The position numbers and the translations under genes are program-made. Shown piece after piece: positions 1,791-38,052 of a DNA stretch of 64,000 nt. The notes below the pieces were generated by a model. It saw only the letters and a list, made by a program, of their open reading frames with translations. It did not search any database and was not told where the DNA came from. The DNA lies in assembly GCA_963728565.1 (NCBI GenBank), contig CAVSLC010000001.1, positions 1 to 64,000 of the forward strand, given 5' to 3'. Positions within the stretch are counted from its first letter, which is position 1. Every line of letters starts with the position of its first letter. Source of the DNA: an uncultured delta proteobacterium. Lineage in GTDB: Bacteria; Desulfobacterota; Binatia; UBA9968.

Positions 1791-1799
1791 GCCTGACCC

Positions 1800-5858: not shown

Positions 5859-5869
5859 GCTCTGAAAGG

Positions 5870-7173: not shown

Positions 7174-7399
7174 TTTTAGTGGACGCAGGGCGGGGGCCCC
7201 GGGGGGCGGCGATGGAGTGTTTTGTGGCTTCTGATAAAAGGGCCGGCCCGAAAGAGGGCTGGCGAATGCGCCTGTGATTAGCTAGAAACGATAACCGCCC
7301 GCTCTTAAACTGCAGCCTGATTGCATTTCCGATTGGCGTATATCTGGCTCGCTCGATTTCCAATCATCTTCTCTGCTGGTAGCCGCCTGGAGGTGGTGG

Positions 7400-8570
7400 C
7401 GACAGGCCGCGTCGGAGTTTTGACGCCGCTGGATGGGCATTATCATCTGAAAGGACGCTGTGAACCAACTTGACAGCCCTGCTTTCTCAAACTAAAAATT
7501 GCCGCAGATTGATTGGGCATACAGTGAGCTGCGACTAGTTCGACTCATTTAAGGAGATCTTTCCAGGAGCGGCCAAGAGCGATCGGATCGATGCGCGCAA
7601 GGGCTTGGAGCTGTTTCAGCTAAGCGATCATCTGCCGCTGGCCAAGGAAGTGTTGCAGGAGGTAAAGGGAACGCCAGAGGAGAACGAGATTCTCAAGCGG
7701 CTTACCCGGCGCCGGCGCAGGCTAGTGGATGAACGGATCCGTGTGATCAGTAATCTTCAAACCGATCTGCAAGCGGTTTGCCCCGGACTGTTAGAGATGA
7801 CCAAGAACGCTGGCAATCAGTGGTTTTTGAATTTTCTTGTCAGTGCAGAGACCCTTCCCCAACTTGCTCGGCTGCGACCATCAAGCTTATTGAAGATCCC
7901 TGCAGTGGGCAGAAAGTATGCGAGCCTCATCGAGGACTGGCAGAAGCGAGCCCATTTTAGCGAAGAGGTTAAATGGGTCAGCGAAATGATCCAGGAAGAC
8001 GCACAACGATGTCTTGAACTCGATGAGAAGATAAAAGTGCTCAAGGCTAAGATCAAAGAAGTTGCCAACGATTCTAAGATCGCCAAGATTTTATTATCCA
8101 TTCCTGGATTCGGAACGATCTGTACTTCTGAGTTAGCCGCAGAGATCGGCGCCATCGAGCGATTCTCAAAGGAAGGGAGTTTGGCGCTGTACTTAGGGAT
8201 GGCCACTCTGGAGAACAGTTCGGGGAAGTATAAAGGATCCAAACAACCCAAGCACGTCAACACGCGAGCTAAATCGGCGATGATGGTAGCGCTCGATCGT
8301 CATCGAAAGTATGTGCCCGAGTCGCAGAGATACTATGAGAGGAAACGCAGCGAAGGGAAAAAGCACAATCAGGCGATTCGAGCTCTGGGACGTCACCTGT
8401 CTCGAATCATTTACAAGATGCTCACTGAAGAGCGCGCCTACGAGATGCGCCCCGAAAAGGGGAATACTAAGAGCAAGGTCACTTCGAGATCGTTGCTTAA
8501 AACGCAAATACGGAAGCCGAAAATTTCAGCCAAAGGAAAAAATAACAAAAATTACCAACAGAGCGCGTGA
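7400..8570 (+). mobile_element. IS110-family transposase; N-terminal DEDD domain garbled or truncated; start approximate
   Basis: AKSDRIDA motif in frame just upstream of 7605; Transposase_20 motif LLSIPGFG...AEIGAIERF...LYLG...SSGK; C-terminal K-x-AIRALGRHL. Confidence 0.85.
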
Positions 8571-8979
8571 TCGGGCCATCATCGGCTTGAATTTCCAGCG
8601 GGATGATCAAGTCTTGCCGTGCCATATCATTCAATTCGTTTGCTCGATCTGTTTAAGTCTACAGCTCACCGTGCCATAGTGAACAACCAAACGCGGGCAA
8701 TCTCATGAAGCCGATATCCATAAACGGCAAACTCCGTTGATTAAACCTGACAGTGATAGCTACTTTCAATTTAATTCTCTCCCGGTTGCATGATAAGTCC
8801 GTTCAGCGCGCAGTTAGCTACCGCTTTAGGTAGACGTCTTTTGTTGACACTTTGAGAATTGGCGAGTCAAGATGTTCGCTGTGCGATCGTAAACGCGATT
8901 GATAATCTAGGCTCAGTTACCGTTCGTTGACCCGTTAACGTTCTTCAGGCCCTCACACTGCACTTCTCGACATGCAGCT

Positions 8980-10147
8980 CTAGTGTCCTGTCTCAGAAAT
9001 TCGCTGACAAAATCGAGCGACACTGGCGAGAATTTGATGAGCGGTTTTGGTCCAGATAAAGGGCTTGGGATTGTCGTTAGTGAACTCGACATACTGTTTG
9101 ATGGCCTTTTCCAATTCCAGCGTGCTGCGATGAGCCGCTCGTTTGATGTATCTTTCGGTGAGCAAACCAAACCACCGTTCCACTAGATTAAGCCACGAGG
9201 CGCTGGTCGAGTGGAAGTTAAGAGAAATGAAAACGGGGCCGTTTGGCAAGCCAACGATGAATCAGAGCGGTTTTATGAGTTCCATAGTTGTCCAGAATAA
9301 GGTGAACCTGAAGCGCACTGGGAACGTTGGTATCAATAGCGTCAAGGAATTTACGAAACTCTACCGCTCGGTGCCTGCGATGCAGTTGGCTAATGATTTT
9401 GCCGGTTTTGGTGTCTAGAGCGGCGAATAATGAGGTCGTGCCGTGTCTGAGATAATTTGAGATCGCGGCGCGCGACTTTTGGCCCGGTCGCATCGGTAGG
9501 CAAGGTACGTTCGATCTAGAGCTTGGATTTGACTCTTCTCATCGACACAGAGGACTAAGACCAGCAACGAGAGGCAAATAGAGCCCGACAATATCACGGA
9601 CCTTCTCGATAAATAGAGGATCGGTGGACAGCTTAAAGGTCTCACTACGATGAGGTTGCAGAGCAAAGGCACGCCAAATGCGGTGAATGGCGCTACGACT
9701 CAACCTGCTGCCGCTAGCCAGTGGAGCGAATACTCCAGTGCGTGGCTTGCCGGGGAGTGGATTCCAAAGTCAGCGTAAGCACATGCTCTGCCTTCAGCAT
9801 CGGTAATAGTACGCGGAGCTGCGGGACGCGCTTCATCGAGCAAGCCATCGAGGCGTTTGCCCAAAAACCGACTGCGCCATTTTCCCACGCATTGTTTGGT
9901 AATGTGCATCTGTTCAGCTACATGCGAGTTGGTTTTGCCGCTCGAACACCCCAGGATAATGCGTGCTCGTTGCGCCAAGGCTTGCGCGGTCCTGGGTCGT
10001 CGTGCCCAGCGTTCCAACGTTTCGCGTTCCTCTTGGTTGAGAATCAAAGCAGGGATTGGACGTCCAGTACCCATCGTTATTCTCCTTCATATCATAGACG
10101 TCCAGTACGAGTTATTTATTTAATTAATTTATGAGACACCACACTAG
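8980..10147 (-). mobile_element. IS630-family element, copy 1 (many indels)
   Basis: Near-identical to 10144-11305; bounded by CTAG at 8980 and 10144; transposase broken into fragments. Confidence 0.9.
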
Positions 10148-11232
10148 TGTCCTGTCTCAGAAATTCGCTGACAAAATCGAGCGACACTGGCGAGAATTTG
10201 ATCAGCGGTTTTGGTCCAGATAAAGGGCTTGGGATTGTCGTTAGTGAATTCGACATACTGTTTGATGGCCTTTTCCAATTCCAGCGTGCTGCGATGAGCC
10301 GCTCGTTTGATCTGTCTTTCGGTGAGCAAACCAAACCACCGTTCCACTAGATTAAGCCACGAGGCACTGGTCGGAGTGAAGTGCAAATGAAAACGGGGCC
10401 GTTTGGCAAGCCAACGATGAATCAGAGCGGTTTTATGAGTCCCATAGTTGTCCAGAATAAGATGAACCTGAAGCGTACTGGGAACGTTGGTATCAATAGC
10501 GTCAAGGAATTTACGAAACTCTACCGCTCGGTGCCTGCGATGCAGTTGGCTAATGATTTTGCCGGTTTTGGTGTCTAGAGCGGCGAATAATGAGGTCGTG
10601 CCGTGTCTGAGATAACTTGGAGTGCGCCGCGCGACTTGGCCCGGTCGCATCGGTAGCAAAGGTTGAGTACGATCTAGAGCTTGGATTTGACTCTTCTCAT
10701 CGACACAGAGGACTAGAGCGCGGTCCGGGGGATTGAGATAGAGCCCGACAATATCACGGACCTTCTCGATAAATAGAGGATCGGTGGACAGCTTAAAGGT
10801 CTCACTACGATGAGGTTGCAGAGCAAAGGCACGCCAAATGCGGTGAATGGCGCTACGACTCAACCCACTGCGGCTAGCCATCGAGCGAATACTCCAGTGC
10901 GTGGCTTGCCGGGGAGTGGATTCCAAGGTCAGCGTAAGCACATGCTCTACCTTAGCATCGGTAATAGTACGCGGAGCACCAGGACGCGCTTCATCGAGCA
11001 AGCCATCGAGGCGTTTGCCCAAAAACCGACTGCGCCATTTTCCCACGCATTGTTTGGTAATGTGCATCTGTTCAGCTACATGCGAGTTGGTTTTGCCGCT
11101 CGAACACCCCAGGATAATGCGTGCTCGTTGCGCCAAGGCTTGCGCGGTCCTGGGTCGTCGTGCCCAGCGTTCCAACGTTTCGCGTTCCTCTTGGTTGAGA
11201 ATCAAAGCAGGGATTGGACGTCCAGTACCCAT
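10144..11232 (-). CDS. IS630 transposase (362 aa)
   Basis: N-terminal HTH; DDE residues in VDEKS, ILDNY, NLVERWF. The stop TAG lies in the terminal CTAG. Confidence 0.95.
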
Positions 11233-11316: not shown

Positions 11317-12015
11317 TCACGCCGCTCTGGATCCAGCAATCCTCATCATCGCAGTTGCCAGCGCGCTGCGGTAGGCGCGGTCGACATCGAGACTGTCGTG
11401 AGCGGCTTGAACCACCGCCTGGGCGATTCTCTCATCCGTGACATATTTGTCGAAAATGGGCTCGAACATGTCGGAATGGTCTTCATCGGCAACCATGTGA
11501 ACTTTGGTATTGTCATCGAGACTTTCAATCGTGCCGCCAAGATCGGCAACTTTCTTGTGAGCATACCTGGCGGTAAAACCTCCGCCTTTGACGATCGCCG
11601 GGTTATTTTTCCTTTCGGTGATGTGGTTCACCATCAGGCTTTCAATCCACGGACGGGTGGTGGCCAGATGCATCCAGGCGAAAAATACCGCGCGCACCGC
11701 CGGCAGCAGATTCGACTCAGCCGTGGCTTCGGCCATTTGCTCATCGGTTAAATGCGCGGCGCCCAACCTTTTGTCAAATATCAGCTCGTCCTTCTCGTGC
11801 TCCCAGATTGCCCGCTTGACATCGAGCGGAGCTCGAACCGCGGCGGCGCCCCAACAATCACGCCTGCTCTTGATATAGTGGGGATAATGCAGGTCGATTA
11901 TTTTTTGGCGCTCCGGAGTTAGTTTTACCGAGAAAAAATCCTGGTACTCCGGGGTTTCGAAATGACGATTCACCAGAGCATCCAGTTCCTGTCTCGTCTT
12001 GGGCCATAAACTCAT
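11317..12015 (-). CDS. Heme-oxygenase-fold diiron protein (CADD/PqqC/TenA-like), paralog 1 (most divergent)
   Basis: RRDCW; HEKDE-x10-H; ITE; HMVADEDH (H-x3-D-x2-H); GGAGG RBS. Confidence 0.75.
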   Translation of the reverse strand: MSLWPKTRQELDALVNRHFETPEYQDFFSVKLTPERQKIIDLHYPHYIKSRRDCWGAAAVRAPLDVKRAIWEHEKDELIFDKRLGAAHLTDEQMAEATAESNLLPAVRAVFFAWMHLATTRPWIESLMVNHITERKNNPAIVKGGGFTARYAHKKVADLGGTIESLDDNTKVHMVADEDHSDMFEPIFDKYVTDERIAQAVVQAAHDSLDVDRAYRSALATAMMRIAGSRAA

Positions 12016-12080
12016 AAATACCTCCTCAACTTGTTTGTCAGACTATATATTCGCTCGCCCAGCCGATCATGTCGCCCAAC

Positions 12081-13085
12081 TCACGGCAAGCCGAAGATCT
12101 GCCGATAAGTTTTCAGGCTTTGTTGAGCGTCCTGCGCCTTTTCCGGATGAAGTACGATGCGCTTGAAGCCTTTGATCAGCCGCGGCGGGTTGGGTTCGAC
12201 TCCGTCGCGCAAGGTCACGCGGCTGAAACTCTGCAGCAGCTCCTGCCCCGACTGTGAAAGGATGAAATCGATGAAAAGTTTGGCAGCATTCGGATTAGCC
12301 GCCTTGGAGCCCAGCATGATCCCATCGAATTTGATAACCACGGGTTCCAGGTTGACCCAGTCGACCGGCGTGCCTTGCGACTTGGACCATTCAATGGTGT
12401 GTGTGTATGCGATTGCGAGAGGAAACTCTCCTACCGCTAAAAGCTGCACCCGCTGGCTATTGCCGCGTCCAACGACGGGCTCTTGCGCGGCCAGTTTCTT
12501 CAGGTAATCCGTTGCCGCGCCGCCTCCCCATGCTTCGCCTAGTCCGACTAAAAGCTCGTAACCTTCATCATCGACAGAAATTTTTCGGCCCTTCCACTTA
12601 GGATTGAGCAAATCCTGGTAGGTCTTGGGCGCATCTTCGCGTTTCACCTCTTGGGTGTTGAAACCGACCCCGGTCGGCAGCGCGTAGGTGCCGGTCCAAT
12701 ATCCCTCTTTGTCTTTCAGATCCTGACTAAAGTGGCGGCGCTCCGGCGACTCGTGCGGCGCAATCAATTTCTTTTGCTTGAGTTCGTAGATGAACTCCGG
12801 CGTCGTTTGCGAAACGACATCCCAACTCGACCGCCCGGCGCGCGCTTCCAGAAGTATTTTATTGTGCAGCCCCACGCTGCCGCTGCGCCAGTAGTTGGCT
12901 CTGATGAAAGGGTAAAGCTTCATGAACTCGTCGACTATTTTTTGTGACTGGTCCTGGGCGATGGTGCTCCACCAAAACAGTTGGCCTTCTTTCTTCGCCG
13001 CCGCGATTACTTTAGGATCGGCCGCCGCTCCCGCGTGCGGCGCAAACCACAAAATCAGCCAAACAAGCATCAGCGCCGGCCACAA
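12081..13085 (-). CDS. ABC solute-binding protein, Fe3+/thiamine/polyamine (AfuA/FbpA-like) cluster
   Basis: Signal peptide; AAKKEG.L..W, PKTYQDLLNPKWKG and NPNAAKLFIDFILS..GQ motifs. Confidence 0.85.
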   Translation of the reverse strand: MWPALMLVWLILWFAPHAGAAADPKVIAAAKKEGQLFWWSTIAQDQSQKIVDEFMKLYPFIRANYWRSGSVGLHNKILLEARAGRSSWDVVSQTTPEFIYELKQKKLIAPHESPERRHFSQDLKDKEGYWTGTYALPTGVGFNTQEVKREDAPKTYQDLLNPKWKGRKISVDDEGYELLVGLGEAWGGGAATDYLKKLAAQEPVVGRGNSQRVQLLAVGEFPLAIAYTHTIEWSKSQGTPVDWVNLEPVVIKFDGIMLGSKAANPNAAKLFIDFILSQSGQELLQSFSRVTLRDGVEPNPPRLIKGFKRIVLHPEKAQDAQQSLKTYRQIFGLP

Positions 13086-13106
13086 CGCGCTGCATAGGGT
13101 CCACCT

Positions 13107-13817
13107 TCATGCGGGGATTTTCTCCTGCGCCTCGGCTATTCCTTTGCGGAACAATGCGTTGAAATCCAGGGACCTTTTGGCCGCCGTCAAAGCGAGTTGT
13201 TCCTTTCCGCCCGTCGCATATTCCGACAGGAAAGGTAAAAACATATCGCTATGCTTTTCGTCGGCCTGGCTGTGCGCCTGCAAGTTGGGAATCTGCTTCC
13301 AGGTAAAACCCATCTCCTCCATCCATTTTTTTGCCATGCGGGTGGATTGACCGCCGCCGAGATCGCCCAACAGCCGGTCATCGTTGCACCACTCGGTGAT
13401 CGTCATCGCCGCCAGTCCTTCAATCCAGCTAAGCTCGCTGGTGATCCACGACCAGGCATAGAGTACCGCCCGTGTTTCCAGCAGCGGCTCGGCGTTCAGT
13501 ATTTGCTCGGGCTCCAGACCGACTGATTTTCCCTGGTTGATGATCAGATGGAGATGACCATAGTCCGAGAAGTCATCGCGAATGATTTCCTCGTATTCGT
13601 GCTCGAGAATCCGTTGTTTGACGCCCAGGATCGGGCAGTTGGCCGAAACGTGCGCCCAACATTCGCGCCGGTGACGCACATAAAGACTTTGCTGCATCAC
13701 CATGACTGCGGCGCGCGGTTTGGTCATCTTGATCGAAAAATAGTGGTCGAGCTCAGGCGATCTGATGTAATCGCGCACCATTTCACCCATCGTCTCGTGC
13801 CACTGGGATTCGTTCAC
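13107..13817 (-). CDS. Heme-oxygenase-fold diiron protein, paralog 2
   Basis: RRECWAHVSANCP; HEYEE-x10-H; ITEW; HSQADEKH. GTG start overlaps the upstream SBP stop (GTGA). Confidence 0.8.
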   Translation of the reverse strand: MNESQWHETMGEMVRDYIRSPELDHYFSIKMTKPRAAVMVMQQSLYVRHRRECWAHVSANCPILGVKQRILEHEYEEIIRDDFSDYGHLHLIINQGKSVGLEPEQILNAEPLLETRAVLYAWSWITSELSWIEGLAAMTITEWCNDDRLLGDLGGGQSTRMAKKWMEEMGFTWKQIPNLQAHSQADEKHSDMFLPFLSEYATGGKEQLALTAAKRSLDFNALFRKGIAEAQEKIPA

Positions 13818-14784
13818 GACTTGCCTCCTTTGTAGAGCCGGTCGATGAAACCTTCCTGCGCCAAACGATCGACGATGGCGTTATCGAAGAGCTGCACTTT
13901 AGGCGGGCTCTTCTGGCCGACCATCTCCAAGACAGTTTCGATGGCTGCCGGATCGACCCGCGGAATTGCATCCAGGTACTTGGTGACGAACTCGTAGTGT
14001 TGTTCCGCCGAGCCGCCGCGTTGCCCCATGTATTTCTCGAGCACCTTGAGACCCTGGGCCTTTCGGGTTTTGAGCGCCGCGATCCCCTCTATGTAGGACG
14101 CGACGATCCTCTCAACGGTTTTAGGTGATCGTCGATAGAAATCGTTACTGACGGCCAGCAAGTTCATCGAGAATGGAATGCCCAGCTCCGCGGCGTCCAC
14201 TAACATCTTGGCCTTCGGACCCGGCGCCTGCGATGACACCCTGCCCTCCGCTTGCCCGGCGCGAAAACCAACGTCCGCTTCGACCACGCCGCCGAACTGG
14301 CGCAACTCGGCCTTACCTTCCAGATTGAGTTTGCGCATGATCAGCCGGGTGACAAAGTCGCTGGTAGAGCCGAACCGAGTGATCGCCAGAGTCTTACCCT
14401 GGAGCTGCTCCGCGCGTTGAATATCCGGCTGAACCCAAAGCTGCATACCAGGCCGGCTGGTATTGCTGCCCACCGCGATGATCGGCGCTCCTTTGATGAT
14501 TGCCGCCACCACTGCGTTACTCGCGCCCAACGCCGCGTGAACGCTGCCGCCTACCAGCGCCTGGATTGCGATCGCGCCGGAACTGATATGAACCAGCTCG
14601 GCATGCAAGCCGTTGCGATCAAGGCACCGATCTCTTTGGCCATCCAGATTCCGGACATGCTCGGGCTGATGGCAGCGTAGGCAAAAGCAACTTTCTCTTT
14701 GGGAGCGTCCGCTGAAAATGCGGTGTGCGACGACAGCAGCAAGAGCAGAATTAGTTTCGCAAACAAAACACAACCTAGGGTCAA
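13814..14784 (-). CDS. SsuA/THI5(NMT1)-type solute-binding protein (one frameshift near 14620)
   Basis: Signal peptide plus WMAKEIGA in ORF 14551-14784; remainder (ITRFGSTSD; FDNAIVDRLAQEGF) in ORF 13814-14896. Confidence 0.85.
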
Positions 14785-14902
14785 AGCTTTTACGTTGACT
14801 AGTTGATTTAAAATCGCCCGGGAGCCGCTTCAACGGGGCATGGAGCCCGTAAAACTCGATCGAGTCATTCATTGTCTGCCTAAAGCACTTTAACATTGGT
14901 CA

Positions 14903-15614
14903 TCAGTCAGGTAGCGCCTTCATCGCGTCGGCAAGACCCTTTTGATAAAGACGGTACAACTCTTCGGATTCTTTTGCGGCCTGCAATATCATCTCTCGGT
15001 TCTCGCCGGAGCCGAACTCCTCCCAAACCGGAAGAAACATATCGACGTGACCTTTGTCGGCTTCGCGGTGGGCCTTCCAGTTCGGCAGATCGTCCCAGGT
15101 GATGCCCAGATATTTGACCCAGAGATTTCCCATTCGCGCCGAGTGACCGCCGCCAAGATCGGCCAAAAGGCGATCGTCCTGGTTCCATTCGGTCATGCGT
15201 CATTGCCGCCAAACCTTCGAGCCAGCTTTTTTTCTTGCACATCCAACCCCACGCATACAATGTCGCGGCTGTAGTCGGGATCGGCTTACTTTGCAAAATA
15301 TCCTCGGCCGTAAGCCCAATCGATTTTCCCTGGCGGATGATCAAATCCAAATGACCATGCTCGGAGTGCGCATCCCGGATCATCTCCTCGTACTCATGCG
15401 CGAGTATCTTCTGCTTGACCGCCAGCACCGGGCAGTTTCCTGAAACATACGCCCAGCAGTCGCGACGATGACGAACGTACAAGGAAAGCTGCTTAAGGAT
15501 GAGTTGTGCCCTCGGCTTGGTTATCGGGAGCGAATAGTATCGCTCCAACTCCGGCGAAGACATCGTCGCGCGAGCTAATTCCCCGAAAGCGGCGTTCCAA
15601 CCGTTCGCATCCAT
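14903..15614 (-). CDS. Heme-oxygenase-fold diiron protein, paralog 3 (1-nt frameshift near 15197)
   Basis: RRDCWAYVSGNCP and HEYEE-x10-H in ORF 14907-15614; TEW...HREADKGH in ORF 14903-15196. Confidence 0.8.
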
Positions 15615-15691
15615 AGTAATTCTCCTCGATCTTCAAACAACCGCGGCCCGGTTGGGCTGTGGAGTGTGCGGGGAATTTCTGAGGCTCTCCG

Positions 15692-16400
15692 CTAAGCGAA
15701 CTTTGCCATCTCCTGCGCAATTCCCGCGCGGAATATCTTCAGCAACTCCATCGACTCTTTGGCCGCTCGGTAGGCAAGCGCTTCCTTCTCGCCGGTAGCG
15801 AACTTTTCCAGATCGTCCAAAAACATATCGCTATGCTCTTCGTCCGCCTCGCTGTGAACTTTGAAATTCGGCATTTGCTCCCAGCCAAAGCCAAGATCGT
15901 CCATCCAACGCTTGGCCATGCGACTGGACAGACCGCCGCCGAGGTCCTGGAGCAAGCGGTCATCATTGGCCCACTCGGTAATGGTCAGAGCGGCCAAACC
16001 TTCGATCCAACTCTTCTCTCTCGTCATCCATGCCCAGGCGTACAGAGTGGCGAAAGTCGTCGGCAAAGGCTCGACTTCCAAAACTTCCTGCGGGCGAGAG
16101 TCCTAACGCTTTTCCCTGCCGGACGATCAGGTCCAGATGCCCATGCTCGGTGTATTCATCCTTGATCACCTCGCCATATTCATGCTGCAGGATCTTTTGC
16201 TTCACCGACATCTGCGGGCAGTTGCCGGAAACGTGCGCCCAACAATCGCGACGGTGGCGAATAAACAGGCCCAATTGCGTGATGAAGATTTGTGCGCCGG
16301 GTCGCGTGATCTTGACCTGAAAATAGCGATCCAGTTCCGGTGCGCGCATCGCGTCACGCACCAACTCTCCCAATTCCCGGCGCCACTCAGCTCGCTTCAT
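15692..16400 (-). CDS. Heme-oxygenase-fold diiron protein, paralog 4 (1-nt frameshift near 16093)
   Basis: RRDCWAHVSGNCP and HEYGE-x10-H in ORF 15963-16400; ITEW...HSEADEEH in ORF 15692-16081. Confidence 0.8.
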
Positions 16401-16413
16401 GCGGATCTCCCCG

Positions 16414-17400
16414 TTACTTGTAAAGCTTGTCGACGAAGCCTTCTTTGATGATCGAATCGATGATGCTGTTATCGAAGAACTCGTTCAGCGAGCTATCCTT
16501 TTTGCCTTCCCAATTGAGTACGGTTTGAATCACCGCCGGGTCTGTTCTCGCGTTACGATCCAAATATTTGACGGCATAGTCATAGGCTTCGTCCAGTGAT
16601 TCACCGCCTCCGAGGAGATATTTGGCTAGAACTTTATAAGCCAGGTCTTTTCTGCTTCTAAGCCCCGCCACTCCTTCGATGTAAGCCTTAAGCATAGCCT
16701 CCACCGTCTTCGGAGAACTCTTGTAGAAGTCCCGCTTGACAGCGATCAGATCCATCGAGAAAGGAATTCCCATGTCGGGCAAATCAACTAACATGCGAAC
16801 CTTTGGACCGGGCTTCATGCTCCGTACAGCCCCGGCGATCATCCCGGTCCGAATAGCGGTGTCGACCTCCCGGGTGCCACCCATCGGTTGAATTTTGACC
16901 TTGTCCTGGAGTCCCAGCTTTTCGAGCACGAACTGGGTTAAGAAATGCGTCGACGAGCCATGCCGGGTAATGCCCAGGACTTTTCCTTGAAGCTGCTCCG
17001 GTTTGGTGATCTCAGGCTGAACAAATAAACTCATCGCCGGCCGGTTGGTGATGCTGCCCACCGCAACAAGCGGCGCGCCACGCAGAATCGAGCTGACTAC
17101 CGCATTGCTAGCGGCCACGCTCATATCGAGATTACCGCCTACCATCGCCTGGACCGTAACGCTGCCGGAGCTAATGTAGATGAGATCGGCCTTGACGCCA
17201 TGCTTCTCAAAAGCTCCCATCTCCTTTGCCATCCATACTCCGGCAAAGATCGGGCTGACTGCAGCATACGCAATGGTTACTTTGGGCGGCGTCTGCGCCG
17301 GCGAGGCTCGCGGGCATGCCAGCAAAGAAAACGACGAACAAGCGCGCTCAAACCGAACTAGACAACGAACAATTCCGCCATCAGCGATAACCACATGCGC
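16414..17400 (-). CDS. SsuA/THI5-type solute-binding protein (start approximate; signal peptide region probably frameshifted)
   Basis: WMAKEMGAFEKHG; GITRHGSSTH; FFDNSIIDSIIKEGF. Confidence 0.85.
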   Translation of the reverse strand, partial: AHVVIADGGIVRCLVRFERACSSFSLLACPRASPAQTPPKVTIAYAAVSPIFAGVWMAKEMGAFEKHGVKADLIYISSGSVTVQAMVGGNLDMSVAASNAVVSSILRGAPLVAVGSITNRPAMSLFVQPEITKPEQLQGKVLGITRHGSSTHFLTQFVLEKLGLQDKVKIQPMGGTREVDTAIRTGMIAGAVRSMKPGPKVRMLVDLPDMGIPFSMDLIAVKRDFYKSSPKTVEAMLKAYIEGVAGLRSRKDLAYKVLAKYLLGGGESLDEAYDYAVKYLDRNARTDPAVIQTVLNWEGKKDSSLNEFFDNSIIDSIIKEGFVDKLYK

Positions 17401-17487
17401 CTCAAGCTGCCTCCGACCAAGACGAGACTCATACTTTGACGCGAGAAACTCCAACAGGTAACGCGGCGGATTTCTCAATGCAGGCTG

Positions 17488-17827
17488 CTAAATCGGCCAG
17501 CCGTGTTCGGAAACGTCGACCCGATTGCCTTCGGCATCTTTGATCCAGCTCTCCGCAATGGCTCCGTAGGTGTTGTCCTCGGCTTTGGTATCGGCAATTT
17601 TCTTCGATTTCTTTGACGCTTTCGACCTTGAACCCAAAGTGGTGAATTCCCCATGGATATTTCTCGGTATGGATGAGAGCGAGATCGAGATGGCCGTCGG
17701 ATAGATAAATAGTTCCTCCAGGCCGCCGGTGTTTTTCTTCCATGCCGAAAACTTTCTTATAGTACTCTGCGGTCTTGTCGAGATCTTCGACGTTGATAGC
17801 GATGTGCCTGATTCTTGGCTTTTCCAT
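17488..17827 (-). CDS. VOC (glyoxalase/extradiol dioxygenase superfamily) protein, ~112 aa, one frameshift near 17600
   Basis: GGAGG RBS; IRHIAINVEDL...YYKKVFGM, GIHHFGFKV, and in the second frame KDAEGNRVDVSEHGWPI-stop. Confidence 0.85.
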
Positions 17828-17855
17828 GAGCATCCTCCTTATTTCATTAGAAATA

Positions 17856-18569
17856 TTAGTTGAGCGGAGTCTTTTCCATGGCCCGGGCCACGCCTTCACG
17901 ATAAAGCCCAAACAGAGCAAGCGACTCTTTGACTGCGGCGAGCGCCAGTTCTTCCTTCTCGCCGGTGGCATACTCCGAAAGAAACGGCAAAAACATATCG
18001 CTGTGCTCTTCATCCGCCTGCGAATGCGCGACAAAATTCGGCATGTCGCGCCACGCCAGTCCCAGGTCATCCATCCAGCGCCGGCCCATCCGGGTAGAGT
18101 GACCGCCGCCGATATCGTTCAAGAGGCGGTCATCATTGGTCCATTCGGTAACCGTCAGGGCGGATAAGCCTTCGACCCAGCTCTTAGCGTGCGTCAGCCA
18201 GGCCCAAGCGTAAAGCGTCGCGGTCGTGCTTAAAAGGGGTTTGGTGTCGACAACCTCGCGGGCGGTCAAGCCGAGCTTTTCCGCTTGGCGGATGATCAGA
18301 TGAAGATGGCCGAATTCTGAATACTGATCCTTGATCACTTCGCCGAACTCGTGCCTGAGGATTGCTTGCTTCACCACCATCACGGGACAATTGGCAGATA
18401 CCAGCGACCAGCAATCACGCCGGTGGCGAATGTAAAGTCCCAATTGCGTGATCATGAGCTGCGCCCGCTGCTTGTTCATTTTGACGGAAAAATAATATTC
18501 CAGCTCCGGCGAGCGCATGTGATCGCGCACCATCTCGCCGATCGCCTTTCTCCACTGCTCAACTTGCAT
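17856..18569 (-). CDS. Heme-oxygenase-fold diiron protein, paralog 5
   Basis: RRDCWSLVSANCP; HEFGE-x10-H; VTEW; HSQADEEH; GGAGG RBS. Confidence 0.8.
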   Translation of the reverse strand: MQVEQWRKAIGEMVRDHMRSPELEYYFSVKMNKQRAQLMITQLGLYIRHRRDCWSLVSANCPVMVVKQAILRHEFGEVIKDQYSEFGHLHLIIRQAEKLGLTAREVVDTKPLLSTTATLYAWAWLTHAKSWVEGLSALTVTEWTNDDRLLNDIGGGHSTRMGRRWMDDLGLAWRDMPNFVAHSQADEEHSDMFLPFLSEYATGEKEELALAAVKESLALFGLYREGVARAMEKTPLN

Positions 18570-18653
18570 CCTTGCCTCCTCGACCTGCTTGCCTTGCTTA
18601 CGCGGCTTTCAGTCAGCCATCTGTCTCCCTATATCCGATTATCGCTGCGCAGC

Positions 18654-19673
18654 TCAAGGCTTCTTGTAAAGCCTTTCAATAAACCCTTCGCGCACCATCT
18701 TATCCACCATCGAGTTATCCGCGAACGTCTCGAGCGGTACTCCCTTTTTGCCGATGAATTCCAAAATCGAATCGATTGCTTCCGGCTCAACCCGCGGTGT
18801 CTTCTCGAGATACAAAATCGAATCCTGATAGATCTCGTCAATTTTCTTCTGATCGCGCAAGCGGGCATACTTGGCGATGGCTTTGTAGGCTCGCTCCTTT
18901 TGGAAATGAATTGCCGCTACCCCTTCCGTATAGGCGCGGACCATGCCGTCGACCACGTGCGGGAAGCGCTTCAGGTCGTCGCGCGAATGGGCAACAACGT
19001 CCATCGAATACTGAAAACCCAGGTCTTCGAGCTTGAGTAATAACCGTGGCTGCATACCGGCATCAACACGGAGGCTTGACGTAACGGCGCCGGCGATCTG
19101 CTTGTTTTGAAATGCCGCGCTGACTTCGATGGTGCCGCCCATCTGACGCACACTGACGGCGTTTTCCAAGCCGTATTTTTTGAGCAGCATGCGGGTTAGA
19201 TTGTCGGTCACCGAACCAAAGCGTGTCACACCAACGGTCTTGCCCTTGAGATCTTCGATGCGGGTAATTTCGGGTTGAACCCAAAACCGATGATACGGCC
19301 GGTTCGCCGTGCTCAACACCGAAACAAGCGGCGCGCCGCGCAGAACCGCCGCGATCACGGCGTTGGTTGCGGCGACGCCGCCGACGATGTCGCCGCCCAA
19401 CAACGCTTGCACCGTAGTCGGACCGGACGAGATGTAGATCATTTCGGCATCGATGCCGTACTTTTCATAGGCGCCGATCTCTTTGGCCATCCATGAGCCT
19501 GCGGCCATGGCTCCGACTGTGGAATAACCGAAAACAAGTTTTTTTGTTTGCGCGGCAAGCTCGGCGGGCGTGAATAGCAAAGCGCAAACGCTGATCATCA
19601 AGGCGGATCTTAAAAAGTCTATTAACAACTGCATCTTTTTCCTTTCGTGTTCGTGTTGATGATCGAAGGACAA
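18654..19673 (-). CDS. SsuA/THI5-type solute-binding protein
   Basis: Signal peptide; WMAKEIGAYEKYG; GVTRFGSVTD; FADNSMVDKMVREGF. Confidence 0.9.
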   Translation of the reverse strand: MSFDHQHEHERKKMQLLIDFLRSALMISVCALLFTPAELAAQTKKLVFGYSTVGAMAAGSWMAKEIGAYEKYGIDAEMIYISSGPTTVQALLGGDIVGGVAATNAVIAAVLRGAPLVSVLSTANRPYHRFWVQPEITRIEDLKGKTVGVTRFGSVTDNLTRMLLKKYGLENAVSVRQMGGTIEVSAAFQNKQIAGAVTSSLRVDAGMQPRLLLKLEDLGFQYSMDVVAHSRDDLKRFPHVVDGMVRAYTEGVAAIHFQKERAYKAIAKYARLRDQKKIDEIYQDSILYLEKTPRVEPEAIDSILEFIGKKGVPLETFADNSMVDKMVREGFIERLYKKP

Positions 19674-19870
19674 TTCAAAAAGTGCCTGGCGTCGAACGCC
19701 TATAGGGGCAATTGACCCACCTGGCTATAAGCCTCAATTTACTGCCCGCGAGATGAACTTGGATGCTGGCCCTATAACAATCAACTCCATGCTCCAAGAT
19801 TGAGAAGGTTCATTGCCATGGATGCGATGAGCCGTATGACTGAACCATCGAAGCTGACAAGAAAATCTTT

Positions 19871-20606
19871 CTACAACGCAGGACTGATCAATTCACGCCC
19901 AAGAAATTCAGTTACCAGCGGCCAGGCAAGATCCGCCAGATACGGTTGGTAGCCATCCGATTCCGTGGAAGCAAAGCCGTGATTGCCGAAATGAAAGTAA
20001 TGCCATTCCAACGGCTGTCCGTTGGCGTGAAAACTTTCCATCACCTTCTGCTGGATCGCGAACGTGCTGGTCCGGTCGTTGCCGCCGTACAGAACCATTG
20101 AAGGACATTTGATCTCACGGGCGGCATCGTACGGGTGGCGCGGTCTGATCGGTGTTGGCGGCTCTTCGCGCACCGATGGGTAATAGGCGACAAAGGCGCG
20201 CACCGCCGGCGTCGCCGCGACAAAATGAATACCGATGCGCCCGCCCATGCAATAGCCGATGACACCGACCCGCGAACGATCAACGTCGTCGCGTGAAAGG
20301 CAATAACGCCATCCCTGATCGATGACGCGGACGAAATCCGGATCGGGTGTCTTGTTTTGGATTTCCGTTCCCTTGTCGATGTGGGTTTCGGCGGGATAAC
20401 CGAGCATGTGATAGAGATTGGGAACAACTGTGGTGTAACCCAACTGAGCGAATCTATAAGCGGCAGTCTTGAGGTAGCCGGTGAGACCGGAGTGCTGGTG
20501 AATCAACAACAGCGCGGGGCCCTTCTGCGCCTGCTCTGCGATGGGCGATGTAGCCTTCGACGCCGTCTTTCTCCTGGTACAATCTGCGCGTTTTAATGGT
20601 TGTCAT
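19871..20606 (-). CDS. Dienelactone hydrolase family protein (frameshift near 20540)
   Basis: GYCMGG nucleophile motif; YGGND; HGF. True start MTTIKTRR at 20606 after GGAG. Confidence 0.9.
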
Positions 20607-20624
20607 CGTTTCAGCTCCTGATCG

Positions 20625-21605
20625 CTAGGACTTCTTGTAAAGCTTTTCGAAAAAGCCCTCCCGAGTAAGCTTCTCGACAATTGAGTTGTCCTGGAAAGTC
20701 TCGGCGGGAATCCCCCGTTTGCCCATAAATTCCAGGATTGTTTGCACCGCCTCGGGTTGGGCGAGTGGGATACGATCCAGATATGTGACCGAGTCGCGAT
20801 AGTGATCTTCGATTTGCTTGGGATCACTGAGATGCCCATACTTGGCGATGATCTTTAGCGCGCGTTCCTTGTTCTGATTCATGAACGCCACACCTTCGGC
20901 ATAGGCACGGACAATTCCCTCGACCGTTTCCGGACTGCGCTTCAATGTATCGCGGGATACCGCGAGCATGTTCATCGAATATGGAATACCCATGTCGACC
21001 ATATTGACCAGGATCTTCGGTACCGTTAGAGAAGGCCCGCGCAGTTCGCCGGTCACGGCGCCGGCGATCTGACGATTCTGAAATGCCGCCGCTACTTCCA
21101 TGGTTCCGCCCATCTGCCGCACGTTGACGTTGCCTTCCAGTCCATGTTTTCGCAGCAAGATGCGGGTCAAGTTGTCGGTGATCGAGCCGAAGCGCGTGAC
21201 GCCGAGAGTTTTTCCTTTTAAATCTTCGAGCCGGTTGATATCCGGCTGGACGAACAGCCGATGATAAGGCCGGTTGGCGGTTCCGCCGACGGCGACAATC
21301 GGCGCGCCGTTCAGAACTGCATTGATAACCGCATTGCTCGCCGCGCTGCCGCCGAGCAGATCGCCGCCGAGCAGAGCCTGCACCACCACCGGACCGGAAG
21401 AAATGAAAATGATATCCGTCTGGATGCCGTTCTTCTCGAATGCACCGATCTCCTTGGCCATCCACACGCCGGTCGCCATCGATCCCACCGAGGAGTAGGC
21501 AAACTTCAGACGTGACTGAGCTTCGGCGACGGAGTGAATCTGAACGCCGAGAAAGATGGACACGGCAAACACCGCGGCTTTGCAAAGCTTCGATCCAGGG
21601 CGCAT
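20625..21605 (-). CDS. SsuA/THI5-type solute-binding protein
   Basis: Signal peptide from MRPGSK; WMAKEIGAFEKNG; GVTRFGSITD; closest to the 18654-19673 paralog. Confidence 0.9.
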   Translation of the reverse strand: MRPGSKLCKAAVFAVSIFLGVQIHSVAEAQSRLKFAYSSVGSMATGVWMAKEIGAFEKNGIQTDIIFISSGPVVVQALLGGDLLGGSAASNAVINAVLNGAPIVAVGGTANRPYHRLFVQPDINRLEDLKGKTLGVTRFGSITDNLTRILLRKHGLEGNVNVRQMGGTMEVAAAFQNRQIAGAVTGELRGPSLTVPKILVNMVDMGIPYSMNMLAVSRDTLKRSPETVEGIVRAYAEGVAFMNQNKERALKIIAKYGHLSDPKQIEDHYRDSVTYLDRIPLAQPEAVQTILEFMGKRGIPAETFQDNSIVEKLTREGFFEKLYKKS

Positions 21606-21705
21606 GGCGGATCCTTTCGCACAAATTGAGACGATATTTGCTTCAGTCTCGCCGAGCCTCAGCAGCAACGAACAGCACAGAGTCGAATGGCCTTCATGTT
21701 TACTG

Positions 21706-23970
21706 TCAGGTTCGTGACCGGTAAACGGAAGTCGTGGCTTGCCCGGCATCTTTGATTGCGCGCCAGACTTTTTCCGGGGTCAAAGGCAGCGTCTTGATCC
21801 GCGCGCCCGAGCACCAGGCGATCGCGTTGGCGATCGCGGGAGCGACCGGAATAATCCCGCCTTCGCCCAAACCCTTGGCGCCGTAAGGACCAGGGCCGTT
21901 GGCATCTTCGATGAGAATGGAATCGAATTGGTCGGGCACGTCATCGAAGCCCGGCACTTTGTAATCAACCATGCCGGCATTGATGATTTGGCCGCTGTCG
22001 AAATGATAAGCCTCATAGAACGTATGGCCAATACCCATCATCGCCGAACCCTCGTCCTGGCCCTCGCAGTGCAGCGGATGCAGCGCTTTGCCGGCATCGG
22101 CGGCGGTCACGTACTTGTGCACGTGCACTTCTCCGGTTTCCTGATCGACATCCAGCTCCACCGCGCCGATGCCGATTTCCCAGAACAGCGGATTTGCCGG
22201 AGTGGGCGCCATGCCGCTATGGGCGTAACCGCGGCCGACAAGCTCGCCTCCCTGCATGGCAAAATGCTTGTGAATCAATTCGCCGTAGGAAACTTTCTTT
22301 CCACCGGCGATGGCTTGGCCATCTTTCAGAGTGATAGCTTCCTCCGGCGATTCGAAGTGTTCCTCGGCGAGCTCGAGGATCTGCCGGCGGGCATCGTTTC
22401 CGGCTAACTCAACCGCCTTGCCCATGACCGTCGTCGAACGGCTCGACCCGGTGGAGCGATCAAACGGCGTGAAAGCAGTGTCGATGGGGCGGATCGTGAC
22501 CCGCTCCAGCGGCACCGACAATTCTTCAGCGACGATCTGACTCATGACTGTCTTGGCGCCCTGCCCGAGCTCCACCGTTCCACACAAGAGAACTACGCTG
22601 CCGTCAGCGAGCACATGCACCGTTGACGTCGAAGCCAGAGGCGCTCCGGGATCGGTGGTGCCAAATCCCACGCCTCGACCTCGGCCGGTTTTGCTGAGCG
22701 CTCCGTCCCAGCCCAGCTTATCGGTGACGAGTTTCAATCCTTTGGCGAGATCGGCATCCAAGGGTTTGAGTTTGGGCCTAATCTCTTCGCCTTTCTTGAC
22801 GAGATTTTTTAGGCGCAGCTCTACCGGATCGAGCCCGAGCTTCTGCGCGATGATATCCATCTGTGACTCGGTGGCCCAGGCAGTCTGCGGCCCGCCGATG
22901 GAACGGAACGAAGCGGCGGACACCGTGTTGGTATAGACACAGTAGGAGTTGATTTTCAGATTAGGGTACCGATATGGCCCAAGTATGCGCGTCAAGGTTC
23001 GACCGGTCACGATCGGACCGGTTTCAGCGTAGGCGCCGGTATTGAGATAAATCTCCGCCTGCTTGGCAACCAGGGTGCCGTCTGTTTTCACGCCGGTCTT
23101 GAGCTTGCATTGGACCGCGTGACGTCGGCAAGTGACCATCGCTTCAGCGACATTGAGCGCCACCCTTACCGGCCGTTGCGCCTTGCGCGCCAGGGCAACC
23201 ACAAGCGGTTCGATCTTTCCTCCCGACTTGCTGCCATAGGCGCCACCGACGAAATTCACATGGACGCGGATCTTCGACAGCGGGTAATGATATATTTCCG
23301 CAATCTCCTGCCGCACGCCGAATGGGTGACCGGTCGACGTCCAGATATTGATCCCGTCGCTATCCACTTCGGCAATCGCGATGTGCGGCTCCATCGAGTA
23401 GTGATAGATCATCGGAAACTCGAAAGTGTCCTCGAAGATCTCGTCGGCCTCGGCAAAGCCGCTCTCCACGTCGCCTTTGACAAGCTCTGTCTGGAAGCAA
23501 ATATTTCTCTCGGCAAATTCGTGAATTCGCGGCGCGCCGGTTGCCAACGCATCCTGCACGTCGATAAGCGCCGGCAGTTCCCGGTATTCGACGGCGATCC
23601 TGGCTAACGCCTCCTCCGCGGTAGCGCGGTCGACGGCGGCAACCGCCGCCACCGGCTGGCCGGCAAAAATTACCCGATCCACCGCAATGATCGGGTGATC
23701 TCGGTTTTTTCCGCGCCCCATGTACGGGCTCACATCGCTAAAGTCTTTGCTGGTGATCACAGCGATCACGCCAGGCAGCGCTTCTGCTTCCCGTGCATCT
23801 ATCGAGAGGATGCGCGCATGCGCGTACGGGCTGCGCAGAAATTTTCCTTCGATCATGCCAGGGACGAAAAGATCACCGGTGTACCTGGCCCTGCCGGTGA
23901 CTTTATCGATGCCATCGACACGCGGCACCGAGGTACCGACGACGGAGAAGCGGCGCTTTTCAGCCTTCAA
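21706..23970 (-). CDS. Xanthine dehydrogenase/CoxL-family molybdopterin-binding large subunit
   Basis: KVTGRARY, LRSPYAHARI, GGAYGSK, SFRSIG, GQG, GAKGLGE (catalytic Glu). Confidence 0.92.
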   Translation of the reverse strand: MKAEKRRFSVVGTSVPRVDGIDKVTGRARYTGDLFVPGMIEGKFLRSPYAHARILSIDAREAEALPGVIAVITSKDFSDVSPYMGRGKNRDHPIIAVDRVIFAGQPVAAVAAVDRATAEEALARIAVEYRELPALIDVQDALATGAPRIHEFAERNICFQTELVKGDVESGFAEADEIFEDTFEFPMIYHYSMEPHIAIAEVDSDGINIWTSTGHPFGVRQEIAEIYHYPLSKIRVHVNFVGGAYGSKSGGKIEPLVVALARKAQRPVRVALNVAEAMVTCRRHAVQCKLKTGVKTDGTLVAKQAEIYLNTGAYAETGPIVTGRTLTRILGPYRYPNLKINSYCVYTNTVSAASFRSIGGPQTAWATESQMDIIAQKLGLDPVELRLKNLVKKGEEIRPKLKPLDADLAKGLKLVTDKLGWDGALSKTGRGRGVGFGTTDPGAPLASTSTVHVLADGSVVLLCGTVELGQGAKTVMSQIVAEELSVPLERVTIRPIDTAFTPFDRSTGSSRSTTVMGKAVELAGNDARRQILELAEEHFESPEEAITLKDGQAIAGGKKVSYGELIHKHFAMQGGELVGRGYAHSGMAPTPANPLFWEIGIGAVELDVDQETGEVHVHKYVTAADAGKALHPLHCEGQDEGSAMMGIGHTFYEAYHFDSGQIINAGMVDYKVPGFDDVPDQFDSILIEDANGPGPYGAKGLGEGGIIPVAPAIANAIAWCSGARIKTLPLTPEKVWRAIKDAGQATTSVYRSRT

Positions 23971-26594: not shown

Positions 26595-26628
26595 TTAGGC
26601 CGGTCGTCTAAATCAAAATGGAGGAGCT

Positions 26629-26940
26629 ATGGTGACAGCATTCGTTCAATTCAAGATACCGGCGCCTATGAGCCGGGAGCAAGCCAAAGAGGTATTTATG
26701 AGCACCGCGCCGAAGTACCAACAGGCAGCAGGATTAATTCGCAAGTACTATCTCCTTTCCGAAGATGGTGGCACGGCCGGTGGTGTGTACTTATGGCGAT
26801 CACGAGAGGATGCCGAGAGTCTCTATACCGAGGAATGGAAGAAATTCGTGAAAGAAAAATATGGTGGGGAACCGACGATTGTCTACTTTCACAGTCCGGT
26901 AGTCGTCGACAATCTGACAAAGGAGATTATCAAAGATTAG
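26629..26940 (+). CDS. YdhR-family putative monooxygenase (dimeric alpha-beta barrel)
   Basis: GLIRKYY...AGGVYLW motif; GGAGG RBS. Confidence 0.8.
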   Translation: MVTAFVQFKIPAPMSREQAKEVFMSTAPKYQQAAGLIRKYYLLSEDGGTAGGVYLWRSREDAESLYTEEWKKFVKEKYGGEPTIVYFHSPVVVDNLTKEIIKD

Positions 26941-26961
26941 CCGCTTCCAATTGGCGCGGGC

Positions 26962-27159
26962 TCACAAGAAATTTCCCGAACATCTTTCCCGACTCCGGCA
27001 AGGTCATCGTCCATGGGTTCGAGATACAGCTCAATTGCCTCGCGGATGTTCTTTAGGGCCTCTCTTTCGCTTTCTCCTTCGGAACGCATCCGGGAAGGGA
27101 AGGCACATAAACAGTAAAACCACCTTCGTCTGTAGGTTCCAAACGACTTTGAGCTTCAT
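26962..27159 (-). pseudogene. HicB-like antitoxin, frameshifted; not in the ORF track
   Basis: Across indels it reads MKLKVVLEPTDEGGFTVYVPSLPGC.SEGESEREALKNIREAIELYLEP. Confidence 0.75.
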
Positions 27160-27268
27160 GTACCCTCCGTTCGACAGAATCATAGGCCCTTCGGAAAGCT
27201 GAGTCAAAAACAAGCGAGGTTGAAGGCGTCACGGCTCAAAATTGGTCGATCCTTCGCCATTTCGGGCC

Positions 27269-38038: not shown

Positions 38039-38052
38039 GGACCACCGGCCTG

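Follow-up and report, generated by a model that had tools for sequence, protein, structure and literature searches.

A conserved array of heme-oxygenase-like dimetal oxidase paralogs and solute-binding proteins in one order of Binatia

Introduction

Why would an uncultured soil bacterium of the Binatia devote a single run of genes to five heme-oxygenase-fold enzymes and five periplasmic solute-binding proteins (SBPs)? The question is posed by a 13-gene cluster on the minus strand at positions 11317-23970 of a 64,000-nt stretch from a Binatia metagenome-assembled genome (MAG), the whole of which is referred to here as the window. A first-pass annotation of this DNA had taken the enzymes for diiron-type members of the heme-oxygenase fold, i.e. 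heme-oxygenase-like dimetal oxidases (HDOs). The paralogs are referred to below as HDO1-HDO5 and SBP1-SBP5, numbered against the direction of transcription.

The HDO superfamily is young and numbers more than 10,000 sequences. As described in the accessible portion of a 2026 review, all characterized HDOs act in biosynthetic pathways leading to natural products or cofactors (PMC13108848), and the accessible portion of a 2021 survey leaves many HDO gene clusters unassigned (PMC7848743). Our preferred answer, held with modest confidence, is that the cluster is an uptake-linked oxidative catabolic or nutrient-scavenging operon belonging to one Binatia order.

Results

Fold and predicted metal ligands of the HDO proteins

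Gene families were assigned by Pfam and NCBIfam searches, and coordinates were taken from open reading frame (ORF) calls. For family analyses we used the intact orthologs of two related loci, L006 and L004, and left the window sequence unmended. PF14518 (Haem_oxygenas_2) is matched by four of the five enzymes: HDO2 (13107-13817; E = 2e-11), an intact gene whose product we modeled; HDO5 (17856-18569; E = 1.4e-9), also intact and with a predicted heme-oxygenase fold; the frameshifted HDO3 (14907-15614) and the C-terminal piece of HDO4 (15692-16400), which is divided between two ORFs (15963-16400 and 15692-16081). HDO1 (11317-12015) is an intact, divergent paralog that has no Pfam family match, yet is 33% identical to HDO2 (tblastn E = 1e-29). 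Weaker matches to PF03070 (1e-4 to 3e-7) are found in HDO2, HDO3 and HDO5. PF14518 outscores PF03070 for HDO2, HDO5 and the HDO4 C-terminal piece, with PF03070 slightly ahead only in the frameshifted HDO3 ORF. Scores against the NCBIfam model of the CADD family (TIGR04305) are 17.7-26.3 bits, below the threshold of 200. The translations of the window and L006 genes show no hydrophobic N-terminal leader on any HDO.

An AlphaFold2 (AF2) model of HDO2, built from a 10-sequence alignment, is all-helical (pLDDT 94, pTM 0.90). Structural comparison of the kind proposed by the first-pass annotation was run for this protein, and the top Foldseek match in the PDB is CADD (8va9; E = 3e-7, query TM-score (TMq) 0.76), followed by SSO2700, Sden_3740 (3dde), PqqC (TMq 0.82), BesC, TenA, UndA and FlcD. 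Foldseek probabilities are 1.00, with TMq values of 0.71-0.82, for CADD, PqqC, BesC, UndA and FlcD. In sequence-profile comparison, SSO2700 (1e-14), the 4-aminobenzoate synthase 9pj4 (2e-9) and CT610 (5e-5) come closest among solved structures.

A profile alignment to CT610 places HDO2 residues E77, H88, E142, H182, D186 and H189 on CADD residues E81, H88, E142, H174, D178 and H181. At the sequence level, this set of three histidines and three carboxylates is invariant across all five HDO orthogroups, as are R50, R51, C53, W54, K67, H73, E74, D81, E133, R160 and a GGG motif. The HDO2 model and the full predicted ligand set in the five orthogroups support the reading of these proteins as heme-oxygenase-fold enzymes with a putative dimetal site. 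We assign them, on sequence grounds, to the HDO superfamily as new members of the three-histidine/three-carboxylate (3H/3C) class, where they form their own clade without a studied member. They would be expected to bind two metal ions (Fe2 or Fe/Mn) and to carry out O2 chemistry.

The first-pass annotation had allowed that the proteins might instead belong to a known family in its usual context, but they fall outside TenA, PqqC and the CADD-type p-aminobenzoate synthases (PabS). In CADD, we take Tyr27 to be the sacrificial residue and Lys152 the amine donor. The HDO2 counterparts are Leu23 and Met161, in a mapping drawn from a distant alignment that could be shifted by a few residues, and neither column is conserved among the paralogs; a role as CADD-type p-aminobenzoate synthases is therefore rejected. 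PqqC identity was likewise considered and set aside: the metal ligand set is present, no pqq genes occur in the cluster or in the extensions of relatives, and the sequence match to PqqC in the PDB has an E-value of 0.78. The comparison with TenA consists of the weak PF03070 matches and of fold matches at E = 3e-5 or weaker.

Conservation across Binatia

Of 802 candidates from searches with HDO2, 566 are related at E <= 1e-3, and the top 120 show 73-98% identity; their annotations read 'PQQ biosynthesis protein C' (a Joint Genome Institute (JGI) label) or 'iron-containing redox enzyme family protein'. Scanning species genomes yielded 56 loci, mostly from MAGs named Candidatus Binatia or, in older entries, 'Deltaproteobacteria', in which the gene order of the window is repeated. 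Gene content varies, and some loci are without HDO4, HDO3 or HDO1.

The distribution within the class was examined in 400 sampled genomes plus the genome of the window. An HDO match at E <= 1e-10 is present in 237 of these 401 genomes. Strong, multi-copy matches (best E <= 1e-57, with seven or more copies in some genomes) are confined to the order of the window, where they occur in 84 of 94 sampled genomes: 53/63 in the window's own family (f1) and 27/27 and 4/4 in two sister families. Other families of the class have only one to four weak matches. These tallies include unpublished genomes, three with strong matches in f1 (G632, G642 and G684) and three with weak ones (G499, G504 and G635), without which the f1 count is 50/60. 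In an even sample of the phylum, 4 of 301 genomes have a match, and among 1.84 billion representatives clustered at 50% identity we found 665, 298 and 57 proteins at E <= 1e-3, 1e-10 and 1e-30, respectively, many of the best being fragments. The HDO clade is narrow, and conservation of the operon spans a single order of Binatia.

The binding proteins and the layout of the array

All 13 genes lie on the minus strand and follow the order first reported for them: molybdenum (Mo)-hydroxylase large subunit, SBP5, dienelactone-hydrolase-family protein (DLH), SBP4, HDO5, VOC-family protein, SBP3, HDO4, HDO3, SBP2, HDO2, SBP1 and HDO1. The ORF coordinates also agree with the GTGA overlap at 13814-13817, where the start of HDO2 and the stop of SBP2 share 4 nt, and with the 13-nt gap at 16401-16413. 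Alternation of binding proteins and enzymes holds only loosely. Five SBPs and five HDOs are indeed present, but SBP5 precedes DLH, HDO3 directly follows HDO4 and the VOC gene stands between HDO5 and SBP3.

The five binding proteins come from two unrelated families. SBP5 (20625-21749; PF09084, E = 1.2e-19), SBP4 (18654-19673; 1.4e-18), SBP3 (16414-17478; 1.2e-20) and SBP2 (13814-14896; 1.4e-8) are NMT1-type proteins. All four exceed the PF09084 cut-off; TIGR01728 is their best NCBIfam match yet stays below its cut-off. SBP1 (12081-13085; PF13343, E = 1.8e-18) is of the Fe3+/thiamine/2-aminoethylphosphonate class (SBP_bac_6). Hydrophobic N-terminal leaders can be seen by eye in the window and L006 translations of all five, and in the SBP4 model, where the signal peptide forms helix 2-21. 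The true start of SBP5 is likely near 21605 (MRPGSK...), with the signal peptide following. A tree of the 45 best-scoring of the genome's 167 NMT1 ORFs places SBP2-5 and two further genes (C13:439604 and C26:2371) in one clade with support of 99. Neither the cluster in the window nor the annotated extensions of its relatives place a permease or ATPase beside SBP2-5.

The nearest solved relative of SBP1 is a periplasmic iron-binding protein (7f6p, 3.6e-25), and a pyridoxal-phosphate-binding protein is also matched. SBP1 is cleanly absent from the two closest related loci, L004 and L005, where ~0.9 kb is gone between HDO2 and HDO1. SBP4 has no close solved relative by sequence (best THI5, E = 8e-4). 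Its AF2 model is poor (pLDDT 67.8), and the Foldseek matches to TauA, THI5, SsuA, ThiY and PqqT, at TMq of about 0.5, are read at the family level and not as a ligand class because the model is of low confidence.

Both components are concentrated at this locus. Five of the eight HDO paralogs detectable by tblastn in the genome lie within 7.3 kb, and the 12.65-kb cluster contains four NMT1 genes versus ~0.47 expected from 167 per 4.53 Mb. Rfam has no match anywhere in the window.

Linkage of binding proteins to HDOs and duplication history

Upstream neighbors were counted in the 56 loci wherever a gene had 1.1 kb or more of sequence ahead of it. HDO2 is preceded by SBP2 in 27 of 36 cases and by any SBP in 29, HDO4 by SBP3 in 13 of 18, and HDO5 by some SBP in 14 of 28 and by DLH in five. 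The remaining two paralogs more often follow another HDO: HDO4 lies upstream of HDO3 in 16/26 loci and HDO2 upstream of HDO1 in 20/38, with an SBP upstream of HDO1 in 10/38. Homologs in other genomes are thus repeatedly tied to SBPs, as the neighborhood survey suggested by the first-pass annotation was meant to reveal. That annotation had named three findings that would count against it, namely a different fold or lack of iron binding, membership in a characterized family and absence of SBP linkage elsewhere; what we find is a heme-oxygenase-fold model with a complete putative metal ligand set, a position outside TenA, PqqC and CADD-type PabS, and recurrent linkage.

The array had also been explained as a binding protein-HDO cassette expanded by duplication. 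In our trees, both of which are quick trees, each HDO forms its own orthogroup with support of 97-100 (100 for HDO5 and 99 for HDO1), and HDO2-5 group together. Expansion by duplication is plausible given this grouping and the single clade formed by SBP2-5. Because these orthogroups extend across the order, the duplications are old rather than a recent expansion. The copying of one SBP-HDO cassette as a unit finds no support here: HDO3 lacks an SBP partner, as HDO1 usually does, and SBP1 comes from another family. The topologies themselves, ((SBP4,SBP5),(SBP3,SBP2)) for the binding proteins and a weak (HDO4,HDO5) pairing (support 83) with HDO2 and HDO3 unresolved for the enzymes, are not mirror images, but the branches that decide this are weakly supported and speak neither for nor against cassette duplication.

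Binding protein-enzyme pairs across the genome

A purpose-built hidden Markov model detects 167 NMT1 ORFs in this 4.5-Mb genome, and PF09084 matches at least 151, with 150 of 214 candidates scored; permease-domain (BPD_transp_1) matches number 61 for every class of ATP-binding cassette (ABC) transporter combined. A same-strand ORF lies just downstream of 121 NMT1 genes. It is another NMT1 gene in 12 cases and a member of a family known from these clusters in 27 more (Amidohydro_2, 12; VOC, 5; HDO, 4; UbiD, 2; DLH, 1; other SBPs, 3). We sampled every second one of the remaining 82 (n = 40) and found 18 enzymes of many families, two ABC parts, seven other proteins and 13 without a Pfam family. 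A binding protein followed by an enzyme is the rule across this genome, and the array in the window is its densest HDO instance. The earlier statement that the layout has no described counterpart stands insofar as the operon was not found in our literature searches, but its uniqueness is weakened because the SBP-then-enzyme arrangement is common genome-wide.

Examples of this extreme NMT1 expansion are seen at C11:204-217 kb, C23:315-324 kb and C6:100-110 kb; genome-wide, most of the NMT1 genes adjoin enzymes and not transporter parts. At two other loci of the genome, L001 (C5:118.7-123.2 kb) and L002 (C5:192-197.6 kb), an HDO paralog belongs to a conserved set that also contains a bicupin, a decarboxylase of the UbiD type and an SBP, and one of the two sets further includes an MR/MLE enolase. 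The bicupin, UbiD and SBP company of these paralogs fits catabolism of aromatic or heteroaromatic acids.

Other enzymes of the cluster and its continuation in relatives

The first gene of the operon (21706-23970; MoCoBD_1/2 and Ald_Xan_dh_C domains) encodes a Mo-hydroxylase large subunit of the xanthine dehydrogenase family, the nearest solved relative being the alpha subunit of 4-hydroxybenzoyl-CoA reductase (1rm6_A, 2e-109). DLH (19871-20602) matches PF01738 at 5.8e-30, and the small, single-domain VOC/glyoxalase-fold protein (17488-17836) matches PF00903 at 9.9e-10. Upstream, divergently oriented phytase-like and Ldh_2 genes are conserved in the relatives. An IS630-type transposase (10144-11232, minus strand; DDE_3 and HTH domains) ends the cluster in the window and stands in place of the genes that follow HDO1 in relatives: two Amidohydro_2 proteins, a second VOC protein, an SBP1-like gene, a gamma-glutamyltransferase (GGT) and UbiD. 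None of these post-HDO1 genes is found in the window, and none has a counterpart above 60% identity elsewhere in the genome. Some relatives have a split thiamine pyrophosphate (TPP) enzyme after the Mo-hydroxylase. Some have a ferritin-like gene, or one for a PF04392 binding protein, inside the cluster itself (L033:8455-9039; L020:5934-6932; L047:6845-9702), which indicates that cluster content is modular between lineages.

Elsewhere in the window, positions 31707-42933 hold an oxalate/formate module made up of an ADP-forming acyl-CoA synthetase, a family III CoA-transferase, a TPP enzyme of the oxalyl-CoA decarboxylase type, a GntR regulator and an NAD-type formate dehydrogenase, whose alpha subunit is broken at 40771-40774 into ORFs of 233 and 720 aa in different frames.

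Private indels in this copy of the array

We aligned the region to the seven closest loci and judged each site against the relatives that cover it. Six private 1-nt indels lie within ~6 kb and affect five genes: SBP2, with one base missing at ~14621 (not seen in 5/5 covering relatives) and one extra base at ~14799 (4/4); HDO3, with an extra base at ~15199 (4/4); HDO4, with an extra base at ~16090 (4/4); VOC, with an extra base at ~17602 (3/3) and DLH, with an extra base in the N-terminal region at ~20540 (3/3). HDO3 is read in the wrong frame after about residue 139. In SBP2, the two indels compensate for each other, garbling ~59 residues while the ORF stays open, and overall identity to L006 SBP2 is 83%. 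The first ~29 N-terminal residues of DLH are out of frame, so that the L006 ortholog aligns only from residue 30. Outside the shifts the proteins match their orthologs closely: 97% and 98% for the two halves of HDO3 and 99% and 98% for those of HDO4 (both versus L004), and 94% and 97% for the VOC pieces (versus L009). None of the six sites lies in a homopolymer.

Logan short-read contigs of relatives (90-99% identity), assembled from independent public runs, provided a check at four of the six sites; among the rows listed, no contig shows 14799 or 20540, the latter being outside the stretch compared. Contigs labeled X1, X5 and X7 are without the extra base at 15199 and at 16090/16091 and contain the base missing at 14620; X1 contigs are also without the extra base at 17602. 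For X2 contigs (depth 2.5-4), none of the four covered indels appears among the rows listed.

The flanks keep 94-99% protein identity to orthologs and contain no further stops, so the indels are either consensus errors or very recent. Judged from these sequences, consensus errors are the likely explanation. The assembly has few contigs (28, totaling 4.53 Mb) yet an estimated completeness of 80.6%, as expected when indel errors break marker genes; the compensating pair within SBP2 would be odd for natural decay; and another MAG locus, L010, carries dense indels within the same gene. We consider it less likely that the shifts reflect genuine decay, with this strain in the course of losing the array. 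Genuine decay would account for the density of six private, non-homopolymer indels per ~6 kb, compared with about one disruption per 9 kb genome-wide as estimated from truncated PF09084 matches, for the truncation of the cluster by the IS630 transposase, and for the flanking insertion sequences (ISs) and gene fragments (rve, IS110, an Ldh_2 C-terminal piece, ThiF and TctC). This explanation concerns the present copy only.

Two parts of the window, 1-10134 and 26600-29500, are sparse in coding sequence and contain mobile-element and gene debris: an rve integrase fragment (1141-1599), an IS110 transposase (7605-8570), a second IS630 N-terminal fragment (9700-10074), an Ldh_2 C-terminal fragment (27242-27616), a ThiF fragment (28271-28687) and a PIN/RHH toxin-antitoxin pair (28790-29502). 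At 43119-45830, TctA is divided into two ORFs, split at 44129, and TctC is a 188-aa fragment, so that both add to the broken genes of this assembly.

Discussion

Proposed function and alternatives

Under the catabolic or scavenging reading, each SBP would be the receptor for one of a set of related small molecules, polar or anionic in character, with the NMT1 clade (SBP2-5) doing most of the capture and the Fe3+-class SBP1 contributing in some genomes. Ligands would be handed to ABC permeases encoded elsewhere and common to many SBPs. In the cytoplasm, five anciently diverged HDOs, each with a predicted 3-His/3-carboxylate dimetal site, would use O2 on their cognate compounds, in hydroxylation, oxidative C-C cleavage or decarboxylation, or N-oxygenation. 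The products may then pass to the co-encoded Mo-hydroxylase, DLH and VOC proteins and, in relatives, to the two Amidohydro_2 proteins, GGT and UbiD, for hydrolysis, decarboxylation and hydroxylation. The company of these enzymes is what gives the proposal its catabolic direction. As to the substrates, we would guess, weakly, at planar N-heteroaromatic or aromatic acids, a choice suggested by the Mo-hydroxylase, UbiD, bicupin and Amidohydro_2 company, by the invariant RR, K and R residues, and by the precedents of ThiY-TenA (thiamine pyrimidine salvage) and PqqT-PqqC, in which an NMT1-fold SBP and a heme-oxygenase-fold protein share one heteroaromatic ligand. A broader proposal, which we advance tentatively and at less than even chances, is that these are the first catabolic or scavenging HDOs, each wired to its own receptor, within a genome-wide 'one receptor-one enzyme' organization in Binatia, in which at least 167 orphan NMT1 SBPs would share a few permeases.

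Several points weigh against this proposal. The most general is that a catabolic role has no precedent among characterized HDOs, all of which are biosynthetic in the part of the 2026 review consulted (PMC13108848), and that for every member of the array we infer the substrate, metal content and activity. The cluster contains no permease, ATPase, regulator or reductase. The Mo-hydroxylase has no small or medium subunit alongside it; its large-subunit domains are complete and all 11 Fer2_2 matches of the genome lie outside the window (0/11 within it), so any Fe-S and FAD partners would have to act in trans. Adjacency of SBP and HDO recurs but is not obligate, and the linkage counts are descriptive and not independent since HDO2-like patterns served to seed the 56 loci, which are close relatives of one another. 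In this genome the cluster is cut off by an IS element and 5 of its 13 genes are interrupted, and the public sequencing runs listed are all of DNA or unknown type, none of RNA.

The alternative that survives best, although we consider it unlikely, is a biosynthetic cluster in which the HDOs tailor a natural product or cofactor and the SBPs import precursors or re-import the product. This would agree with the natural-product pathways to which the review, as far as its accessible part goes, assigns HDOs (PMC13108848), and a lineage-restricted family, with 57 clusters at E <= 1e-30 in 1.84 billion representatives, is also in its favor. We see, however, no nonribosomal peptide synthetase, polyketide synthase, ligase, ATP-grasp protein, methyltransferase, aminotransferase or exporter in the cluster or in the extensions of its relatives. 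The neighbors are instead DLH, VOC, Amidohydro_2, UbiD and GGT, there are up to five periplasmic receptors per operon, and the genome-wide SBP-then-enzyme pattern involves ordinary catabolic enzymes.

Slightly less probable still is that the array encodes subunits of hetero-oligomeric oxidases, for example HDO4-HDO3 and HDO2-HDO1 pairs, an arrangement that would be compatible with catabolism. The frequent direct succession of these genes, with no SBP in between, and the retention of all five orthogroups together across the order could be read in this way. Every paralog has the complete ligand set, however, and none therefore looks like a non-catalytic partner; the loci also vary in content, some doing without HDO4, HDO3 or HDO1.

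We regard it as very unlikely that the HDOs are metal-free enzymes of the TenA/PqqC type that work with ThiY- or PqqT-like SBPs to salvage a pyrimidine or quinone cofactor. The weak PF03070 matches, the presence of PqqC and TenA among the HDO2 fold matches, of ThiY, a thiamin-binding SBP and PqqT among those of the SBP4 model, and the JGI label all point in that direction, but six CADD-type ligands are invariant in five orthogroups, PF14518 is the stronger family match except in the frameshifted HDO3, and the matches of the SBP4 model, with its pLDDT of 68, are generic. Nor are pqq or thi genes seen in the cluster or its extensions, a genome-wide search for pqq genes not having been made. We give still lower odds to self-sacrificing CADD-like synthases (of p-aminobenzoate, for example), whose many copies would reflect a single turnover per protein: no functionally known relative is closer in sequence and fold than CADD and Nitrosomonas PabS, but the Tyr27/Lys152 positions are unconserved, identity to CADD is 14% and there is no folate context.

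If the broader 'one receptor-one enzyme' proposal is correct, the ligand of each SBP would reveal the substrate of the enzyme behind it, and ligand screening of the adjoining SBPs offers a practical handle for finding HDO substrates. This would be a general route to deorphanizing the HDO clade and, with it, a large part of the catabolome that Binatia direct at recalcitrant soil organics. The excess of orphan NMT1 proteins beside enzymes also informs how abundant uncultured soil bacteria organize substrate capture.

Comparison with known systems

The closest comparison by fold and function is with CADD (CT610; 1RCW, 8VA9) and the Nitrosomonas-type 4-aminobenzoate synthase (9PJ4), which have the same seven-helix fold and the same E/H/E/H/D/H ligand positions as the window HDOs. 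Identity is only ~14%, and each of those enzymes is a folate-pathway singleton, whereas here five paralogs occur in an uptake-type operon. The closest solved protein by sequence, the TENA/THI-4 domain protein SSO2700 of Sulfolobus solfataricus (4LQX), aligns over residues 67-218 and is matched by Foldseek at E = 3.5e-7, but at 322 aa it has an additional N-terminal segment, and Gly stands at the position of HDO2 H182. It provides no functional transfer, as its own function is not known.

On the receptor side, ThiY (3IX1) and PqqT (9B1V) are among the fold matches of the SBP4 model and TenA and PqqC among those of HDO2, the SBP likeness holding at the family level only. TenA and PqqC are metal-free, while the window HDOs keep a predicted dimetal site and no thi or pqq genes are seen in the cluster. 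SBPs of the SsuA/TauA (NitT/TauT) type have PF09084 in common with SBP2-5, and TauA and SsuA are among the top fold matches of SBP4; SBP2-5 differ in having no adjoining permease or ATPase and in being part of an expansion of at least 167 genes.

UndA, BesC, SznF, FlcD, AetD/SktA, HrmI and RohS share the superfamily and fold of the window proteins, along with the 3H/3C ligand type, the majority class according to the accessible part of the 2026 review (PMC13108848). Foldseek E-values of HDO2 against characterized HDOs range from 3e-5 to 1.4e-3. Our literature searches on SBPs or ABC transporters of Binatia/Binatota, on PF14518 and on HDO catabolism with SBPs found no account of this operon in the portions of the sources that were accessible. 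Characterized HDOs sit singly in biosynthetic clusters, whereas here five paralogs are found with receptors and neighbors of the catabolic type. What is new relative to the described HDOs is this receptor and catabolic context, the retention of five paralogs and their order-wide conservation, and five conserved paralogs in an operon of the uptake and catabolism type would extend HDO biology.

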